From Mobula hypostoma (lineage: Eukaryota), in assembly GCF_963921235.1 (NCBI RefSeq), contig NC_086107.1, forward strand, positions 110,610,001-110,674,000: DNA of 64,000 bases, read 5' to 3'. Position numbers and translations under genes: made by a program. Every line of letters begins with the position of its first letter. Positions within the stretch are counted from its first letter, which is position 1. The notes under the pieces were generated by a model that was given only the letters and a program-made list of their open reading frames with translations, was not told the DNA's origin and did no database searches. Shown in pieces: positions 7,648 through 61,739 of this stretch.

Positions 7648-8250
7648 CGCCACACCAGCAGGTTCAGGAACAGTTATTACACTACATCCATCAGGCTCCT
7701 GAACCGGTGTGGGTAGCTTCACTCACCCCAACACTGAGCCGATTCCACAATCTATGGACTCACTTCCAAGGACTCTACATCTCATGTTCACTGTATCATT
7801 TATGTTTACCTATCGATCTATCTACTTCTCTCTCTATCTCTCTCTCTCTCTCTCTCTCTCACTTATTTACTCTCACTCACTCTATCTCTATCAGTTTATT
7901 TCTTTATCTGTCTATCTATCTATCTCTTTATCTGTGTATCTTTTTATCTATCTCTTTATCCGTCTCCCTATCTCTGGATCTTTCTCCCTATCTATCTATC
8001 CTGATCTTTTTATCTATCTATCTATCTCTTGGTCTCTATCTATATCTCTCTGTCTGTCTGTCTGGCTCTCTCTCTCTCTCTATCTATTTATTAGTTATAT
8101 TTTTTATTTGCTCTATTTGTCTCCTTATAACCACTTATTGTTTAACAGTCTTTATTTATGTATATATTTTAAATAAATTCTATTGTATTTCTTTTCCTGT
8201 AAATGCCTGCAAGCAAATGGATCTTGAAGGAGTAAATGTACTTTGACTTT
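7648..8250 (+). mobile_element. Rex1-like 3' end with an internal (TC)/(TATC) microsatellite expansion (~7810-8100)
   Basis: CAGGTTCAGGAACAGTTATTAC...ATCAGGCTCCTGAAC 3' motif, a simple-repeat tract and a TTTGAC tail. Confidence 0.7.
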
Positions 8251-12054: not shown

Positions 12055-13115
12055 TGTTAGATGTTGGAAATCCAGAGCAAAACACACAAAATGCTGGAGG
12101 AACTCAGAAGGTCAGGCAGCATCTATGGAAAAGAATAAGTACTGGATGTTTTGGGTTGAAACCCTTCATCAGATTTTGTAAAGAAGGGGGAAGAAGCCAG
12201 AATAAGAAATTGGGTGGACTTTTAGCAGTATGCATCAGCTGGTGATAGGTGAGACCAGGTTCAGAGGTTCATTTATTATTAAAGTATACAACTCTGAAAT
12301 TCTTCTCCATGAAATGAAGAAAGAAAAGAAAATGGTACCACAACCATCAACTGCCCCCAAATCCCCCCTCCCTGCACAAAAAAACCCAAAATGGAACAAG
12401 CACATTGACTCCCAAATCCCTCTCCCCACAGACAAAAAAATGAGAAAGATTTGGTGAAAAGCACGGAATATAAAAAAACTATAAGACTGGAAAAAATAGT
12501 CTATAGTCCAAGTCCATATCCAAAATGCAGAAAACCTGGGTAGCATTCGCCGGGTACAGCGGCAGCCTCTTCCCTCTCTGATAGCAGAGCGATCCCCCAG
12601 CGATCAAGAGGCAAACTGCCTCTGCCATCTGGAATCCTTTCGGAGACTGCTCAGACGCCAAAGTGATCTCCAAACCGCAAATCACGGGCTCCAACAGTTC
12701 CAGAGTCACATTGCAGATGAAAAAAAATGTAAAAGACATAAAAGAAGTGAAATATATGGTTTCATGATCTATCCAGAAGATGTCAACAGAAGGAGCATTG
12801 CATGCAGGCGCCATCTTGAGCAGAAGGGTAAACACTGGGTGGCTGGGGGTCGGTAGGGGAGGGGGGATGAAGTGAGAAGCTGGGAGGTGATAGGTGGAAA
12901 ATGTAAAGGGCTGGAGAAGAAAGAATCTAATAGGAGAGGTGAATGGGCCACATAGGAAAAAGGGACGTGTGGGGGGAGCACCAGAGGGAGGTGATGGGCA
13001 AGTGAGGAGAAGAGAAGGTGTGAGAGGGGGGAGAATAGCGAATGGAAAATGAGAGATAGGGGAGGGGGCAGAATTTAACAGACGTTAGAGCAATTGATGT
13101 TCATGCTCCCAGACA
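12055..13115 (-). mobile_element. Penelope-like 3' fragment interrupted by an unclassified retroelement (~12260-12825)
   Basis: GATGTTGGAAATCCAGAGCAAAACACACAAAATGCTGGAGGAACTCAG tail and purine-rich UTR, matching 4803-5305 in reverse. Confidence 0.7.
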
Positions 13116-16995: not shown

Positions 16996-17870
16996 TCAGA
17001 ATCAGAATCAGGTTTAATATCACTGGCATATGTCGTGAATTTGTTGTTTTGCAGTAGCAGCAGCACAATGCAGTACATAATATAAGTTGCAGTGAGAAAT
17101 ACATAGAACAATACGGCACAGTACAGGCCCTTCGGCCCACAATGTTGTGCCGACCCTTAAACCCTGCCTCCCATATAACCCCCCCACCTTAAATTCCTCC
17201 ATATACCTGTCTAGTAGTCTCTTAAACTTCACGAGTGTATCTGCCTCCACCACTGACTCAGGCAGTGCATTCCACGCACCAACCACTCTCTGAGTAAAAA
17301 ACCTTCCTCTAATATCCCCCTTGAATTTCCCACCCCTTACCTTAAAGCCATGTCCTCTTGTATTGAGCAGTGGTGCCCTGGGGAAGAGGCGCTGGCTATC
17401 CACTCTATCTATTCCTCTTAATATCTTGTACACCTCTATCATGTCTCCTCTCATCCTCCTTCTCTCCAGAGAGTAAAGCCCTAGCTCCCTTACTGCATAT
17501 ATTAAATAAGTAGTGCAGAAAGAAAGGGAAAATAGTGAGGTAATGTTGACAGGCTCAATGTCCATTCAGAAATCTGATGGCAGAGGGGAAGAAAATGTTC
17601 CCGAAGTGTTGGTAGTAGCATTGAGAAGGGAGAATGCCCTGGCTGATGGGGGTCCTTAAAGATGGATGCTGCCTCTTTGAGGCACTGCTCTTTGAGGGTG
17701 CCCTGGGTGCTGGGGAGGCCAGTGGCCGTGATGGAGCTGGCTGAGTTTACAGCCTTCTGCAGCTTTCTCCGATCCTGTGCAGTGGCCCCTCCGTACCAGA
17801 TGGCGATGCAACCAGAGGGATTGCTCCCACGGCAACTCTGCAGAAACCTGCGAGTGCCTTCGGCTCTCCT
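16995..17870 (-). mobile_element. Rex1-like 3' fragment, split by the CR1 at 17101-17490
   Basis: (TCTGAT)n tail at ~16995-17010; the ORF-end motif continues after 17495. Confidence 0.75.
17101..17490 (-). mobile_element. Young CR1 LINE, 5'-truncated
   Basis: Uninterrupted RELGLYSLERRRMRGDMIEVYKILRGIDRVDSQRLFP...; near-identical to 57355-57748. Confidence 0.92.
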
Positions 17871-24633: not shown

Positions 24634-24863
24634 AAACACGAGGAATTCTGCAGATGCTGGAAATTCAAGCAACACACATCAAAGTTGCTGGTGAACGCAG
24701 CAAGCCAGGCAGCATCTCTAGGAAGAGGTACAGTTGACGTTTCAGGCCGAGACCCTTCGTCAGGACTAGACGAAGTGTCCTAACAAAGGGTCTTGGCCCG
24801 AAACGTCGACTGTACCTCTTCCTAGAGATGCTGCCTGGCCTGCTGCGTTCACCAGCAACTTTG
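24634..24863. mobile_element. Penelope-like inverted pLTR pair with 14-bp TSD
   Basis: TSD ATAATACTCCAGGT at 24620-24633 and 24864-24877; internal inverted arms ~24677-24765 and ~24777-24865. Confidence 0.88.
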
Positions 24864-25174
24864 ATAATACTCCAGGTGTGGTCTAACCAGAGTTTTATAC
24901 AGCTGCAACATTACCTCATGGCACTTGAACTCAATCCCCCCAACTAATGAAGGCCATCACACCATATGCTTTCTTAACCACACTATCCATTTGCATGGCA
25001 ACTTTGAGGGATCTATGGACGTGGACTTGAAGATCCCTCTGTTCCTCCACATTGCAAAGAATCCTGCTGTTAATTCTATACTCTGCCTTTGTTTGATCTT
25101 TCAAAGTCAACCACCTCACACTTTTCCACGTTGAACTCCATTTGCCACTAATCAGCCCAGCTCTGCATCCTATC

Positions 25175-25335
25175 GTAAACACAAAATAATCTGAAGATGC
25201 TGGGGTCAAAGCAACACTCACAACACACTGGAGGAACTCAGCAGGTCGGTCAGCATCTGTGGAAACGATGAGCTGACGTTTCGGCCCGGAACCCTTGCTG
25301 CCGACCTGCTGAGTTCCTCCAGCATGTTGTGTGTG
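25175..25335. mobile_element. Penelope-like short insertion with inverted end and 13-bp TSD
   Basis: TSD TCTGCATCCTATC at 25162-25174 and 25336-25348; CTGGAGGAACTCAGCAGGTCGG occurs in both orientations. Confidence 0.85.
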
Positions 25336-26189
25336 TCTGCATCCTATCAATGTCCTGTTGCAACCTATGACAACCTTCTACCTTATCCAGAGCACTTCCA
25401 GCCTTCATGTCATCTGCAAACTTACTAACCCACCCTTCCATTTCCTCACCCAAGTCATTCATAAAAATCTCGAAGAGCAGGAGTCCCGGAACAGATCCGC
25501 ATGGAATACCAGATAGCAGTGTGGAGTACCTTCGTGTAGCAGTTTAGAAAACCAGCTGCTATCTTCTCAAGGGCAAAAATGGATGGGCAATAAATGCTGG
25601 CATCGTTAGTGATGTCCAGATCCCAAAATTAAATGACTGATAAAATCTCACTCCTGAACTGTTCTTTTAATATCATTTGGGAGCTGTAGTGATGATTTTA
25701 ATCTTGCGTCAGCCCACAAGTCTATAGAATAGCAGATTCCTTGTATTTGATTACATTGTGGTTCACTGCGCGGGCCACATTTGTGGTCACTGGTCTCTCT
25801 GTTTCTATAGCACAGTATGGTGTTACCACTTCCTATTTCTATAGCACTGGGTTTTCTGTAGTACTGAGCTGTTGGCATTTCCGTATCACTGGATGTGGTT
25901 GGCCTTTCTGTTGTTCTGAGTTTTTACAGGATGGGCTGGCTAGCTCTATGCCCAGCCCTCTCCCTTTAGTACCGGCTTTGGGACCATCCATGGTGAAGTT
26001 CCAGTGGCTTACTATTACCAAGGCTGAGCTAAAGCAGGGAGATTGCAGTGCTGAATATCTTCAGTACTGGGATCTTCCTGTGCTGTGTGATATTAACCCT
26101 GCAGACTAACGGGCTTCCAGCTGTGCCTGTTGGTTACCCTCTGACAGACCATAGGATACAGGGGCAGAATTAGGCCCATCTCGTCTAAA

Positions 26190-52189: not shown

Positions 52190-55100
52190 CTCTCAACTAA
52201 GGATGTCCTTCAATTCTGAGGCCGTGCCCTCTGGTCCTAGACTCCCCTACTATAGGAAACATCCTCTCCACATCCACTCTAACTGCGTCCTCTGGTCTTA
52301 GTCTCCCCCACTACAGGAAACATCCTCTCCACATCCACTCTATCTGTGCCCCCTGGTCCTAAGACTCCCCCACTATAGGAAACATCCTCTCCACATCCAC
52401 TCTATCTGTGCCCTCAGGTCCTAGACTCCCCCACCATAGGAAACATCCTCTCCACATCCACTCTATCTGCGTCCTCTGGTCCTAGACTCCCCCACCATAG
52501 GAAGCATCCTCTCCATATCCACTCTATCTGTTCCCCCTGGTCCTAAGACTCCCCCACTATAGGAAACTTCCTCTCCACATCCACTCTATCTGTGCCCTCA
52601 GGTCCTAGACTCCCCCACCATAGGAAGCATCCTCTCCACATCCACTCTATCTGTGTCCTCTGGTCCTAGACTCCCCCATTACAGGAAACATCCTCTCCAC
52701 ATCCACTCTATCTGTGCCCTCTGGTCCTAGACTCCCCTACTATAGGAAACATCCTCTCCACATCCACTCTAACTGCGTCCTCTGGTCTTAGTCTCCCCCA
52801 CTACAGGAAACATCCTCTCCACATCCACTCTATCTGTGCCCCCTGGTCCTAAGACTCCCCCACTATAGGAAACATCCTCTCCACATCCACTCTATCTGTG
52901 CCCTCAGGTCCTAGACTCCCCCACCATAGGAAACATCCTCTCCACATCCACTCTATCTGCGTCCTCTGGTCCTAGACTCCCCCACCATAGGAAGCATCCT
53001 CTCCATATCCACTCTATCTGTTCCCCCTGGTCCTAAGACTCCCCCACTATAGGAAACTTCCTCTCCACATCCACTCTATCTGTGCCCTCAGGTCCTAGAC
53101 TCCCCCACCATAGGAAGCATCCTCTCCACATCCACTCTATCTGTGTCCTCTGGTCCTAGACTCCCCCACTACAGGAAACATCCTCTCCACATCCACTCTA
53201 TCTGTGCCCTCTGGTCCTAGACTCCGCTACTATAGGAAACATCCTCTCCACATCCACTCTAACTGCGTCCTCTGGTCTTAGTCTCCCCCACTACAGGAAA
53301 CATCCTCTCCACATCCACTCTATCTGTGCCCCCTGGTCCTAAGACTCCCCCACTATAGGAAACATCCTCTCCACATCCACTCTATCTGTGCCCTCAGGTC
53401 CTAGACTCCCCCACCATAGGAAACATCCTCTCCACATCCACTCTATCTGCGTCCTCTGGTCCTAGACTCCCCCACCATAGGAAGCATCCTCTCCATATCC
53501 ACTCTATCTGTTCCCCCTGGTCCTAAGACTCCCCCACTATAGGAAACTTCCTCTCCACATCCACTCTATCTGTGCCCTCAGGTCCTAGACTCCCCCACCA
53601 TAGGAAGCATCCTCTCCACATCCACTCTATCTGTGTCCTCTGGTCCTAGACTCCCCCACTACAGGAAACATCCTCTCCACATCCACTCTATCTGTGCCCT
53701 CTGGTCCTAGACTCCCCTACTATAGGAAACATCCTCTCCACATCCACTCTAACTGCGTCCTCTGGTCTTAGTCTCCCCCACTACAGGAAACATCCTCTCC
53801 ACATCCACTCTATCTGTGCCCCCTGGTCCTAAGACTCCCCCACTATAGGAAACATCCTCTCCACATCCACTCTATCTGTGCCCTCAGGTCCTAGACTCCC
53901 CCACCATAGGAAACATCCTCTCCACATCCACTCTATCTGTGCCCTCAGGTCCTAGACTCCCCCACCATAGGAAACATCCTCTCCACATCCACTCTATCTG
54001 CGTCCTCTGGTCCTAGACTCCCCCACCATAGGAAACATCACCATAGGAAACATCCTCTCCACATCCACTGTACCTGTGTCCTCTGGTCCTAGACTCCCCC
54101 ACCAAAGGAAACATCCTCTCCACATCCACTCTATCTGTGCCCTCTGGTCCTAGACTCCCCCACTATAGAAAACATCCTCTCCACATCCACTCTATCTGTG
54201 CCCTCTGGTCCTAGACTCCCCCACTATAGGAAACATCCTCTCCACATCCACTCTATCTGTGCCCTCTGGTCCTAGTCTCCCCCACTACAGGAAACATCCT
54301 CTCCACATCCACTCTATCTGTGCCCTCTGGTCCCCGTCTCCCCCACTATAGGAAACATCCTCTTCACATCCACTCTATCTGTGCCCCCTGGTCCTGGACT
54401 CCCCCACCATAGGAAACATCCTCTCCACATCCACTCTATCTGTGCCCTCTGGTACTAGACTCCCCCACTATAGGTAACATCCTCTCCACATCCACTCTAT
54501 CTGTGCCCCCTGGTCCTAAAACTCCCCCACTATAGGTAACATCCTCTCCACATCCACTCTATCTGTGCCCCCTGGTCCTAAAACTCCCCCACTATAGGAA
54601 ACATCCTCTCCACATCCACTCTATCTGTGCCCTCAGGTCCTAGACTCCCCCACTATAGGAAACATCCTCTCCACATCCACTCTATCTGTGCCCTCAGGTC
54701 CTAGACTCCCCCACCATAGGAAACATCCTCTCCACATCCACTCTATCTGTGTCCTCTGGTCCTAGACTCCCCCACTATAGGAAACATCCTCTCCATATCC
54801 ACTGTATCTGTGCCCTCAGGTCCTAGACTCCCCTACCATAGGAAGCATCCTCTCCACATCCACTCTATCTGTGTCCTCTGGTCCTAGACTCCCCCACCAT
54901 AGGAAACATCCTCTCCACATCCACTCTATCTGTGTCCTCTGGTCCTAAACTCCCCCACCATAGGAAACATCCTCTCCACATCCACTCTATCTGTGTCCTC
55001 TGGTCCTAGACTCCCCCACTATAGGAAACATCCTCTGCACATCCACTCTATCTGTGCCCTCTGGTCCTAGACTCCCTCACTATAGGAAACATCCTCTCCA

Positions 55101-55410
55101 CATCCACTGTATCTGTGTCCTCTGGCCCTAGACTCCCCCCACTATAGGAAACATCCTCTCCACATCCATGGTATGCTGACCTTTCAACATTTAATAGGTT
55201 TCAATGAGATCTCCCCTCATTCTTCTAAACTCCAACGGTACCAGCACAGAGCCATCAAACGCTCCTCATGTGTTAACCCTTTCAATCCTGGGATCATCCT
55301 CGTGAGCCTCCTTTCGACTTTCCCCAATGCCAGCATAACCTTTCATAGACAAGGGACCCAAAACTGCTCACAACACTCCGGGTGCGGTCTGACAAATGCC
55401 TTACAAAGCC
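52190..55410 (-). mobile_element. CR1 ORF2 3' fragment hosting the 61-bp satellite
   Basis: Flanks 52190-52225 and 55168-55410 are contiguous CR1 sequence (EFRRMRGDLIETY...SLRIEGHP). Confidence 0.85.
52224..55168. repeat. 61-bp tandem satellite, ~48 copies, with a 490-bp higher-order repeat
   Basis: Unit CTCTGGTCCTAGACTCCCCCACTATAGGAAACATCCTCTCCACATCCACTCTATCTGTGCC; variant AACTGCGTCC recurs at 52281, 52771, 53261 and 53751. Confidence 0.97.
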
Positions 55411-56903
55411 TCCTGGAGGATGTATTATAATGGAGACATTGCAGAAAATGCTCGCTCAGGTTGACCTATGGAGGTTGAACTCCAGCCCGGATCTGTATCC
55501 CAGTTCTGACAACGATTGTTGGCCTTCCCTTGCTGATCTATCGTACATGGTTTTGCCTCAGGATAGTGGCCATCCCATGAAGACTACTTGAAGATCAGAA
55601 TGAATTGTTAATCTGTCTTTTTCCTGGGTAGTAGTGGTAGTGCGGTCACTCGAGTCGAGTGTAATGTTCTCCTAAGTTGTTGTCTATTGGTGGGTCTTCA
55701 GGTGGCGGTAGAGGCTGATCTGGGATCCACATGTCCAGGATGCTGGGGTTAAATCCCTTAATGGAGAATGCCTGCACGTGACTTTGTTGAACTTGGGGAG
55801 GCCGATGCTCGGGCAGCCACCGCGCAGTCCTGCCAGATCAGGTTCAGGGTCCAGTGGCACGGAGTGCAAGACATCTGGGAACCCTTCACTGCTGCAGACT
55901 TCCTCTGCCTTCCCCACGTCCGTGATGTGTCATCATCACCCGCCAGCTCCGCCCGGATTGCTCTTTGCCTGGAACTTCCCCTTGACCTCACTGACCTCGG
56001 GCGCCATGGTAACGTGGCGGTTGGCGCGACGCTATTACAGCTGAGGACGTCATCGTTGGAGTTCAATTCTGACACCACCTGTAAGTAGTCTGTGCAAGAA
56101 ACCATATAAGTAGAACAAAGTAAATCTATTTCAGTGCATAGGCACATGGATGAAAGAAAAATGGAGAGCTTATAGTGAAGGAAGGTTTAAACTGACCTTA
56201 GAGCAGGTTAACATTGTGGACTGAAGGGCCTTTTCTGTGCTGTACTGATCTATGCTTTATGTTCTAAAGTGATCAAAGTGGTCATAGTGGTCATCAAACT
56301 TTAATGATTAGGGTTTTGTCAGTTGGTTCAAGAACCGAATGGTTGAAGGGAAGTAGCTGTTCTAGAACCTGGTGTGGTTCAGTTGTATGTGGAGTCTGTG
56401 AGTGTGGGCGATGCTCCCTGCTAGACACTTCATATTTCCTTATGACAGAGGAGGAGGCTATTCAGCCCATTGAATCCATGCAAGCTCTCAAAGCAAACCC
56501 TTTTCCCTCAGATACTTTCCCATAACTACTCTCTCTCACCCGCTCATTAACAATGCCTCTGGTTCTCCTATCTCCTAACCTGAACTGGAAGAGGGGGCAC
56601 TGTATGCTGACCTATTAACCCACCAACACAACTTTGGGATGTGGGAGGAATGTATGGGGGGCGGTTATCAGTGATAAGTTCTTTACACAGAGAGTGGTGA
56701 GTGCGTGGAACCAGGGGTGGTGGTAGAGGTAGATACATTAGGGACATTTAAGAATCTCTTAGGCACATGGATGATAGAAAAATGGAGGACTATGTCGGAG
56801 GGAAGGGTTAAATTGATCTTAGAGTAAGTTAAAAGGTCGGCACAACATTGTGGGCCGAAAGGCCTGTTCCGTGCTGTAATGTTCTATATTCTATGAAAAC
56901 TTC

Positions 56904-57748
56904 TTGTCGAAGATTGCAGAGAGACATTGCTAGGATGCAGAAGTGGGCTGAGAAGTGGCAGATGGAGTTCAACCCGGAGAAGTGTGAGGTGGTACACTTT
57001 GGAAGGACAAACTTCAAGGCAGAGTACAAAGTAAATGGTGGGATACTTGGTAGTGTGGAGGAGCAGAGGGATCTCGGGGTACATGTCCGCAGATCCCTGA
57101 AAGTTGCCTCACAGGTGGATAGGGTAGTTAAGAAAGCTTATGGGGTGTTAGCTTTCATAAGTCGAGGGATAGAGTTTAAGAGTCATGAGGTAATGATGCA
57201 GCTCTATAAAACTCTGGTTAGGCCACACTTGGAGTACTGTATCCAGTTCTGGTTGTTTCACTATAGGAAGGATGTGGAAGCATTGGAAAGGGTACAGAGG
57301 AGATTTACCAGGATGCTGCCTGGTTTAGAGAGTATGCATTATGATCAGAGATTAAGGGAGCTAAGGCTTTACTCTTTGGAGAGAAGGAGGATGAGAGGGG
57401 ACATGATAGAGGTATACAAGATATTAAGAGGAATAGATAGAGTGGACAGCCAGCGCCTCTTCCCCAGGGCATCACTGCTCAATACAAGAGGACATGGCTT
57501 TAAGGTAAGGGGTGGGAAGTTCAAGGGGGAGATTAGAGGAAGGTTTTTTACTCAGAGAGTGGTTGGTGCGTGGAATGCACTGCCTGAGTCAGTGGTGGAG
57601 GCAGATACACTAGTGAAATTTAAGAGACTACTAGACAGGTATATGGAGGAATTTAAGGTGGGGGGGGGTTATATGGGAGGCAGGGTTTAAGGGTCGGCAC
57701 AACATTGTGGGCTGAAGGGCCTGTACTGTACTATGTTGTATGTTCTAA
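56904..57748 (+). mobile_element. Young CR1 LINE, 5'-truncated, ORF2 C-terminus uninterrupted
   Basis: RLQRDIARMQKWAEKWQMEFNPEKCEVVHFG...LVRPHLEYCIQFW...; older CR1 3' ends lie just upstream (~56135-56265, ~56675-56895). Confidence 0.93.
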
Positions 57749-58154: not shown

Positions 58155-58781
58155 TGAGTCATTCAAAAATGAATCTTTTTTGTTTCTCAATAAGGTGTTT
58201 ACATAATTAGATTGCATTGAATAATCCAAGGAGTTGTATGCATGAATTCAAGCCTGCAGGTCTCAAGCATTGGCTAATGATTGCAAGACAGAAAAAAACC
58301 CAGATCAAGCGGGTTTTTATAGTTGCAAGTGCCAGTTCTGTCGCAGGGACAATCCTCGCCACCATCGAGGGCATCTTCGAAAGGCTGTGCCTCGGGAAGG
58401 CGGCATACGTCATCACCTGGGACATGCCCCCTTCTCATTGCTACCATCAGGGAGGGGCTATAGGAACCTGAAGAAGCACACTCAATATCTTAAGAACGGC
58501 TTCTTCCCCTCTGCCATCAGATTTCCGAATGGACAATGAACCCATGAGGCATCACCTTTCGAAGATGCCCTCGATGGTGGCGAGGATTGTCCCTGTGACG
58601 GAACTGGCACTTGCAACTACAAAAACCCGTTTGACCTGTTTTTTTTTGTTTTGCAACCGTTAGCCAATGCTTGAGACCTGCAGGCTTGAATTCATGCACA
58701 CAACTCCTTGAATTATCCAATGCAATCTAATTATGTAAACACTTTATTGAGAAAAATAAAGATTCATTTTTGAATGACTCA
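58155..58781. repeat. Inverted duplication, arms ~58155-58393 and ~58546-58781
   Basis: Arms are reverse complements with scattered mismatches; the ORF track shows paralogous peptides MNNPRSCMHEFKPAGLKHWL (+) and MDNSRSCVHEFKPAGLKHWL (-). Confidence 0.93.
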
Positions 58782-59339: not shown

Positions 59340-59665
59340 TTCTATCTAATATCTATCTATCTCTCTATTATTTATCTCTCTATCTCTCTGTCTCTCTATC
59401 TACCTACCTACCTATCTATCTGATCTATCTATCCATCCATCTATTTATCTATCTATATAATTATCTATCCATCTATCTATCTATCTATTGACCTATCTAT
59501 ACATCCATCTATTTATCTATATAATTATCTTTCTATCTGTCCATCTATCTATCTATCTATTGATCTATCTATCCATCCATCTCTCTATCTATCTACCTAC
59601 CTACCTATCTTTCTCTCTATCTACCCATCTAACTACCCTTCTTTCTATCTACCTACTTGTCTATC

Positions 59666-59712
<47 letters not shown>
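59340..59712. repeat. (TATC)n/(TC)n microsatellite tract
   Basis: Visible simple repeats; similar tracts at ~58800-58872 and ~63450-63527. Confidence 0.9.
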
Positions 59713-59714
<2 letters not shown>

Positions 59715-60133
59715 CTTGGACTCACTTTACACCGCACGCTGTCGGAGCAGTGCTGCCAGGATAATCAAGGACACGACCCACCCAGCCAACACACTTTTCG
59801 TCCCTCTTCCCTCCGGGAAAAGGCTCAGGAGCTTGAAGACTCATACGGCCAGATCTGGGAACAGCTTCTTTCCAACTGTGATAAGACTGCTGAACGGATC
59901 CTGACCCGGATCTGGGCCGTACCCTCCAAATATCCGGACCTGCATCTCAGTTTTTTTGCACTACCTTACTTTCCATTTTTCCGTTTTCTATTTATGATTT
60001 ATAATTTAAATTTTTAATATTTACTATCGATTTGTAATCCAGGGAGCGGGAAGTGCAGAATCAAATATCACTGTGATGATTGTACGTTCTAGTATCAATT
60101 GTTTGGCAACAATAAAGTATAAAGCATAAAGTA
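59710..60133 (+). mobile_element. Young Rex1-like 3' end
   Basis: LDSLYTARCRSSAARIIKDTTHPANTLFVPLPSGKRLRSLK; AATAAAGTATAAAG tail. Confidence 0.9.
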
Positions 60134-61019: not shown

Positions 61020-61218
61020 CAATCCTGGATCAGGTCGAGAATCAGGAGGAAAATGAGGATGAGGATCAGGATGAGGATGAGGATCAGGACGAGGATCAGG
61101 ACGAGGATAAAGGTGAGGATCAGAATGAGGATGAGGATGAAGATCAGGATGAGGATGAGGATGAGGATCAGAACAAGGATGAGGATGAGGATAAAGGTGA
61201 GGATCAGAATGAGGATCG
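61020..61218. repeat. Imperfect hexamer repeat (GAGGAT/CAGGAT)n at the tail of a minus-strand Rex1-like element (~61200-61560)
   Basis: 6-bp periodicity; runs directly into GGTTGATTATCACTGACATA 3'UTR sequence. Confidence 0.9.
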
Positions 61219-61739
61219 GGTTGATTATCACTGACATACTGTAGCATGTTGTGAAACGTATTTTGTGGCAGCAGAACAGTGCAATGCAAATAAAAATATG
61301 CTATAAATTCCAGAAAGAAATGTAAAATAAATAAATTGTGCAAATAGAGAGCAAAATAGCGAGATAGTGTTCATGGACTCATGGCTATTCAAAAATCTGA
61401 TGGGCAGAGGGAAAAAAGCTGTTTCTAAAACTTTGAATGTGTGTCTTCAGGCTTCTGTACCTCCTCCCTGAAGGTATCAGTGAGAAGAGGGCATGTCCTG
61501 GGTGGTGGGGGTCCTTGATAATGGATGCCGCCTTCCTGAGGCACCGCGTTTTGAAGATTCCCTCATCACTGCCCAGGAAGCAGCCTCGGGACAGGTCCCC
61601 CATGGATTAGCTGAGAAGCAACTTCACTGTGACCTGGAGCGGGCTGTAATAGTTAACCCTGTTCTCCACCTTCACCAAAACTGAATTTCAGATGCTGGAG
61701 TTCCCCGCCACCTCAGGTTTTCCTGGTTTAGCCTAACGG

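Follow-up and report, generated by a model that had tools for sequence, protein, structure and literature searches.

The tandem array at positions 52224–55168 of the analyzed window (the whole 64,000-nt stretch of Mobula hypostoma DNA) is probably a non-functional, transposon-derived minisatellite that represents one locus of a family shared by several rays and carries a recent block duplication at its edge. Its unit is a 61-bp piece of the ORF2 of a CR1-type LINE, and the same head-to-tail junction between units exists in four organisms. The array is real and was accurately described in the first-pass annotation, yet it is ordinary in kind. The locus consists of the following features:

52201–52223, minus strand: LINE flank on the 3' side, a clean match of 23 bp, with a degraded match possibly extending to 52190 (at most 34 bp)
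52224–55168, minus strand (the LINE sense): tandem array of the 61-bp piece of CR1-type LINE ORF2, delimited with Tandem Repeats Finder and by cutting in the LINE register
52224–53939, no strand assigned: eight-unit, 490-bp block in 3.5 copies that are 0.23% apart, from the lag-490 comparison and the unit cut
53939–55168, no strand assigned: remainder of the array, 19 full units and 1 partial unit without long-range order
54024–54054, no strand assigned: 15-bp slippage duplication within unit 30, from Tandem Repeats Finder and the unit cut
55169–55411, minus strand: LINE flank on the 5' side, running to the unit from residue 838 of the ORF2 protein P0012 and containing stops and a frameshift
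55169–55179, no strand assigned: block of 11 nt, adjoining the array on the right, in which 5 of 8 scored columns differ from the LINE family

Tandem Repeats Finder placed the array at 52224–55168, with periods of 61, 122, and 490 bp, and the cut in the LINE register divided these 2.9 kb into 48 units of 61 to 62 bp (47 full and 1 partial, with 28 distinct sequences; length and period are as given in the assembly), in line with the approximately 48 copies counted previously. With 48 head-to-tail units of this size, the array is a minisatellite under a definition that calls for units longer than ~6–10 bp and up to ~100 of them per array (PMC6947457). Satellites proper form long heterochromatic arrays with very many copies; at 2.9 kb, the array at the studied locus falls short of this. 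Neither a canonical G4 motif nor telomeric dimers were detected in the array. A protein search with a plus-strand frame of 55 residues, present in the tandem form alone, produced no hit among 16 candidates, a weak negative that concerns longer proteins only. Pattern scans for the junction in metagenome and viral contigs, and for a motif from within the unit in metagenome contigs, likewise gave no match; as such collections probably contain no ray DNA, these negatives carry no weight.

On the minus strand, the unit reads DRVDVERMFPIVGESRTRGH and matches residues 917–936 of P0012, a LINE ORF2 protein with Exo_endo_phos and RVT_1 domains, with 14 of 20 residues identical, which bears out its earlier assignment to LINE ORF2. 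Together with both flanks, the unit is colinear with residues 838–942 of the same protein, and, being colinear with the parent element and bordered by parent sequence, it has the hallmarks of a transposable element (TE)-derived minisatellite. The unit lies colinearly between its own flanks, and the proposal that the array expanded in place stands. The companion claim, that both flanks are contiguous CR1 sequence, was right as to colinearity on the two sides, but the 3' side amounts to just 23–34 bp and reaches residue 942 only, neither the remainder of ORF2 nor a 3' tail being present. No continuation was found on the 3' side within the window, and hence no intact tail; beyond this flank lies another dispersed repeat (52099–52171 matches 12979–13048 at 77%). 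No LINE match was found upstream of the residue-838 side either, that is, further 5' of 55169–55411. With flanks confined to 55169–55411 and to 23–34 bp, the host LINE copy is a decayed remnant of ~330 bp. The protein matches come from cartilaginous fishes and are either unnamed or labeled "uncharacterized", and a sister LINE fragment has named relatives in Hypanus, Mobula, Leucoraja, Chiloscyllium, and Callorhinchus. We provisionally take the element to be of the CR1 type, the label of the first-pass annotation, on the strength of C-terminal motifs. In batoids, L2/CR1/Rex is the main LINE class.

We aligned the contigs of four sequencing runs, X1, X5, X9, and X15 (organisms A, B, C, and F, respectively), on 55032–56200, an interval comprising 2.2 units at the end of the array together with the right flank. 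Between 35,323 and 66,848 contigs aligned per run, so that the LINE family is evidently very numerous. Monomeric family copies in all four runs align over 55052–55114, that is, 61 + 2 nt, with loose ends on both sides. This interval equals one unit plus the shared dinucleotide CT, so the tandem joint involves 2 nt of microhomology, and the loose ends confirm, without recourse to the protein match, that either side is colinear. Among the 32 contig pieces listed (of 210,939), 20 of which are located in the array, at least six (three from X9 and one each from X1, X5, and X15) bridge the junction 55114|55115 with at least 31 letters to the left and to the right. Thus, the junction is bridged in all four runs examined, with the same unit boundaries in several species. 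Two claims of the first-pass annotation, that the repeat was invented at the studied locus and that this locus might seed a larger family, are left without support by this observation, the same junction being already present in four organisms.

The depths of the contigs bear on the number of loci. X1 contigs with a depth of ~10 are identical to the window flank along 466 and 411 bp, and X1 may be the source sample. The bridging X1 piece has a depth of 91, compared with 10.2–10.4 for the exact flank contigs, and carries 11 differences; in the studied array, only one segment has 11 differences to the bridging interval. Two further X1 pieces, each covering a whole unit and extending past both junctions, have depths of 131 and 205, with one candidate array segment each. 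X1 junction variants at such depth exceed what the studied array can supply, with the caveat that contig depth is no copy number. From these variants, we infer that the junction occurs at more than one locus per genome, although the other haplotype, a single large array at another location, or a longer array collapsed in the assembly could also account for them. Among the 32 of 210,939 pieces listed, a second locus with its own flanks was not seen, and within the window the junction has no match outside the array, the five other aligned copies of the segment being monomeric.

In X5, the orthologous flank is present, with 30 differences in 881 bases (3.4%) and a depth of 56–69 for the flank pieces, against a depth of up to 4905 for the go-back joints; such joints appear in 11 of the 12 rows listed (12 of 800) and reach a depth of 939 in X15. 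Two of the X5 go-back joints, 55076 to 55038 and 55136 to 55038, imply a period of ~41 bp as worked out by hand, and variants of the unit that are shorter, but from the same LINE segment, may on the evidence of these joints exist in organism B. The depth summed across the unit exceeds that of the next flank bin by a factor of 5–9; this ratio is not a copy number, and the flank is more diverged. Word shares in the runs of organisms C–I, of which C and F are among the four aligned, range from 0.17 to 0.29, close to the 23% of distinct 31-mers that belong to the array, and flank repeats could contribute to these shares. Neither the depth ratio nor the word shares enter the argument. X9 and X15 have zero cover of 55422–55616, which does not imply absence of the orthologous locus; a piece with 16 differences was found in X15 at 56019–56200.

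The 490-bp block sits at the left edge of the array and comprises its first 28 units, 1716 bp or 3.50 copies, matching the earlier report of an exact eight-monomer period repeated about 3.5 times. Units 1–8 measure 61, 61, 62, 61, 61, 62, 61, and 61 bp (six of 61 bp and two of 62 bp), for a total of 490 bp. The block copies show 5 differences in 2208 compared bases. At lag 490, all differences before 53940 stem from just two private substitutions (52679 and 53226), the isolated changes that had been pointed out previously. At lag 8, 20 consecutive units match, compared with a maximum of 6 when the unit order was shuffled (10,000 shuffles, lags 1–15), and the number of differences per unit is 0.2, against 4.6–6.4 at the remaining lags from 1 to 10. 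Hence, at this lag the block copies are far closer to each other than the monomers are, which is the signature of a higher-order repeat. Within the block, units 3–4 differ from units 6–7 by 2 and 1 substitutions, respectively; this likeness is the trace of an older 184-bp duplication, a layer absent from the first-pass annotation.

High identity between tandem copies is also what an assembly artefact can generate, and, the block copies being 99.8% identical, the 490-bp period or its copy number might be unreal. We consider this highly improbable, given that two of the copies carry private substitutions, that the window contains no N, that the fourth copy stops at an internal unit duplication (the block ends where unit 28 recurs exactly as unit 29), and that the X1 flank contigs equal the window over their 466 and 411 bp. 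Length polymorphism of the array is plausible.

The rest of the array had been characterized as less ordered, with a 15-bp slip near 54040, and both statements held: its 19 full units and 1 partial unit show no long-range order, and the slip maps within unit 30. In this part, neighboring units are slightly closer to each other than distant ones, with 3.6 vs. 4.6–5.0 differences (lags 4–10). Variants are distributed over the units as a mosaic, the four-gamete test being failed by 29 of 105 pairs of variable sites, as exchange between units would predict; recurrent mutation may add to this number.

Three clocks are available for the relative dating of these components: the block copies differ by 0.23%, the flanks of organisms A and B by 3.4%, and pairs of monomers by 4.46 positions per 61 bp, or 7.3%. 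Monomer diversity is therefore twice the A–B flank divergence, which does not support the earlier view of the array as young. The two private changes in the 1716 bp of the block correspond to 0.07 of half the A–B divergence (95% interval 0.008–0.25), and the block probably postdates the A–B split, with the caveat that gene conversion could have reset it and given it too young an appearance. Thus, among the components of the array, only the 490-bp block is young, whereas the monomer array is older. The majority unit shows no differences at the 40 columns on which at least 3 of 4 in-window paralogues agree. Measured from the family majority, the distinct monomers differ at 57 of 1064 positions (5.4%) and the flanks without the edge blocks at 4 of 70 (5.7%); monomers and flanks are thus equally far from the majority, so that array and insertion are of roughly equal age, which fits a founding of the array at insertion or soon after.

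The interpretation put forward in the first-pass annotation, a young satellite that originated solely here, is forming a higher-order repeat, and possibly seeds a family, draws on genuine features of the locus, namely, the colinear flanks, the monomeric state of the other in-window copies, and the very young block at one edge. We nevertheless regard it as very improbable: the junction is bridged in four organisms, the probable source organism has variants for which the studied array does not account, and monomer diversity exceeds the A–B divergence. The array is, moreover, only 2.9 kb long, contains no CENP-B box, and has 10 CpG dinucleotides where 141 are expected. The suggested transition from a monomeric to a higher-order satellite is likewise not supported: with 48 units the array is a minisatellite, and alternating subvariants are also reported for snake sSat3 (PMC10702118).

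The edges of the array are relevant to a different scenario, in which ectopic gene conversion or break repair transferred the units from another array to an old, monomeric copy of CR1. Such import would likewise leave colinear flanks, and similarity to the family is lost abruptly at the right edge, in the 5 of 8 columns of the 11-nt block. A second short cluster of differences from the family lies at 55235–55246, and the two clusters are possibly repair scars. Taken whole, the flanks differ from the family majority at 16 of 89 positions, compared with 2 of 39 for the average monomer (one-sided Fisher p = 0.043), but the excess is confined to the edge blocks: the clean left flank gives p = 0.22, and, without the 11-nt block, the comparison becomes 4/70 vs. 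2/39 (p = 0.63). Import thus appears very unlikely.

The main rival to a shared origin is a hotspot, whereby the same 61-bp segment would duplicate independently in many ordinary copies of CR1, either while these are reverse transcribed or when they are later replicated, and each array would be born in place. In favor of it, the family is very numerous (35,323–66,848 aligned contigs per run); in the family majority, the unit is bracketed by an imperfect short direct repeat, as read by eye; some joints imply other periods, the ~41 bp worked out by hand; and hotspot regions within elements are reported for AluS and LTR12 (PMC3389668). The joint, however, uses the 2 nt of microhomology rather than the longer imperfect repeat, and no structural cause for a hotspot was found: the 61-bp unit shows no unusual fold or hairpin propensity (z of 0.08 to 1.36) and no canonical G4, and its mean G4Hunter score of 0.73 is unexceptional, being equaled or surpassed by other CR1 stretches within the window. 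With the same joint in four organisms and so little homology to produce it, a single origin is favored, and we consider the hotspot unlikely, if less so than the other alternatives.

Under the single-origin reading that we favor, the segment near the end of the CR1-type ORF2 was joined head to tail at the CT microhomology, the joint itself being directly observed in the contigs. In the weakest step of the scheme, this joint would have formed once in a source lineage, before the species split, and the pre-duplicated, frameshifted source element would then have been mobilized in trans into new loci. Every new insertion would thereby have started with two or more units; against such a source, a two-unit element with an intact tail was not observed. 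A partnership between retroelements is on record for sharks and rays, in which the SINE HE1 is partnered with the LINE HER1 (PMC3747384). After insertion, units would have multiplied locally and swapped variants through slippage, unequal exchange, and gene conversion, a mechanism suggested by the observed mosaic pattern. A recent eight-unit misalignment, probably after the split from organism B to judge from the clocks, would have duplicated the leftmost 490-bp block, which could then have copied itself to 3.5 copies, being now the best-matching register. The higher-order repeat would accordingly be a by-product of unit turnover rather than a developmental stage. More tentatively, we propose that rays possess an as yet undescribed, multi-species family based on one fixed 61-bp piece of CR1 ORF2, which might have been seeded genome-wide by a pre-duplicated, frameshifted, non-autonomous CR1.

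The closest known case is that of the squamate SINE-derived satellites, above all sSat3 (Vassetzky, Kosushkin, and Ryskov 2023, PMC10702118). In snake sSat3, a 67-nt SINE piece, common to snakes, forms up to thousands of loci, the units are 89% alike compared with 64% for the parent copies, up to 25% of the long loci have alternating subvariants, and the number of units is not constant between orthologues (PMC10702118). The ray array resembles sSat3 in that a short internal retroelement piece (67 nt in sSat3, 61 in the ray array) is tandemly repeated and bordered by parent sequence, in that one unit is found in many species, and in that the units are closer to each other than parent copies are. 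It differs in that the parent is a LINE coding region instead of a SINE and in that the alternation is an exact 8-mer, where dimeric and trimeric patterns are mentioned for sSat3.

Other systems are more distant. Among human minisatellites and satellites, at least 7,276, or 23%, have their origin in TEs; they expanded by local duplication, usually in a polar fashion, and, for LTR12, in which the repeats lie within the source element, spread by transposition has been proposed (PMC3389668). These human minisatellites consist mostly of two units, with Alu and LTR examples, in contrast to the 48 units and higher-order structure of the ray array. Among CR1-containing tandem repeats, chicken HinfI (SCR1) and the CR1-C-related Cen2/3/4/7/11 (PMC9659126, PMC6947457) are pertinent: HinfI, too, places CR1 sequence, including part of ORF2, in a vertebrate tandem repeat, but its unit embeds a CR1 piece with the 3' UTR, whereas the ray unit is 61 bp of ORF2 only, in a small array. 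Chicken CNM, with 26–98 monomers per block and 5–162 blocks at CENP-A-bearing centromeres (PMC9974502), shares with the ray array short monomers arranged in near-identical blocks, and its active blocks can sit at the array edge; it is far larger than the 8 monomers in 3.5 blocks of the ray array, which shows no centromere sign. Searches directed at elasmobranchs, together with passages of three genome papers, yielded no description of the unit, although repeat libraries or supplements may already contain it.

As a single locus, the array carries little weight, TE-derived minisatellites and internal block duplications being well known. If many arrays share the ancestral unit and breakpoint, they amount to replicate experiments on the gain of higher-order periods, and they would carry the pattern of the squamate sSat repeats over to cartilaginous fishes and to the coding region of a LINE. 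If the seeded family is real, it would provide parallel arrays with a known ancestral sequence, in which the births of higher-order repeats could be counted and dated.

Half of the window matches itself. Among the 134 open frames of at least 62 codons outside the self-matching repeats, two matched RVT_1, two matched ALKBH8_N, which we take to be LINE remnants, and 130 had no match; no clear host-gene domain was found among them (short exons would escape), and the window has no Rfam match. On the minus strand, 26–874 holds a reverse-transcriptase region that is frameshifted and belongs to the same type of LINE as the array (residues 423–708 of P0012, 61–69% identity). Another CR1-type subfamily is represented by two 3' pieces, 17101–17492 and 57353–57743, which are 95% identical in opposite orientation. 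This pair is far younger than the remaining copies in the window, and the second piece lies in a 285-codon open frame (56833–57690). An inverted pair of ~240 bp, 58155–58393 and 58546–58781, is 92% identical and 150 bp apart, and self-complementary stretches occur among LINE fragments at 24678–24865 and 25214–25336 (89% over 188 bp and 77% over 132 bp, respectively). Simple repeats are represented by a degenerate tandem array with 6/12/18-bp periodicity at 61053–61224 and by long degenerate (TCTA)n-type microsatellites that adjoin LINE remnants, at 59341–59716 and 7817–8085.
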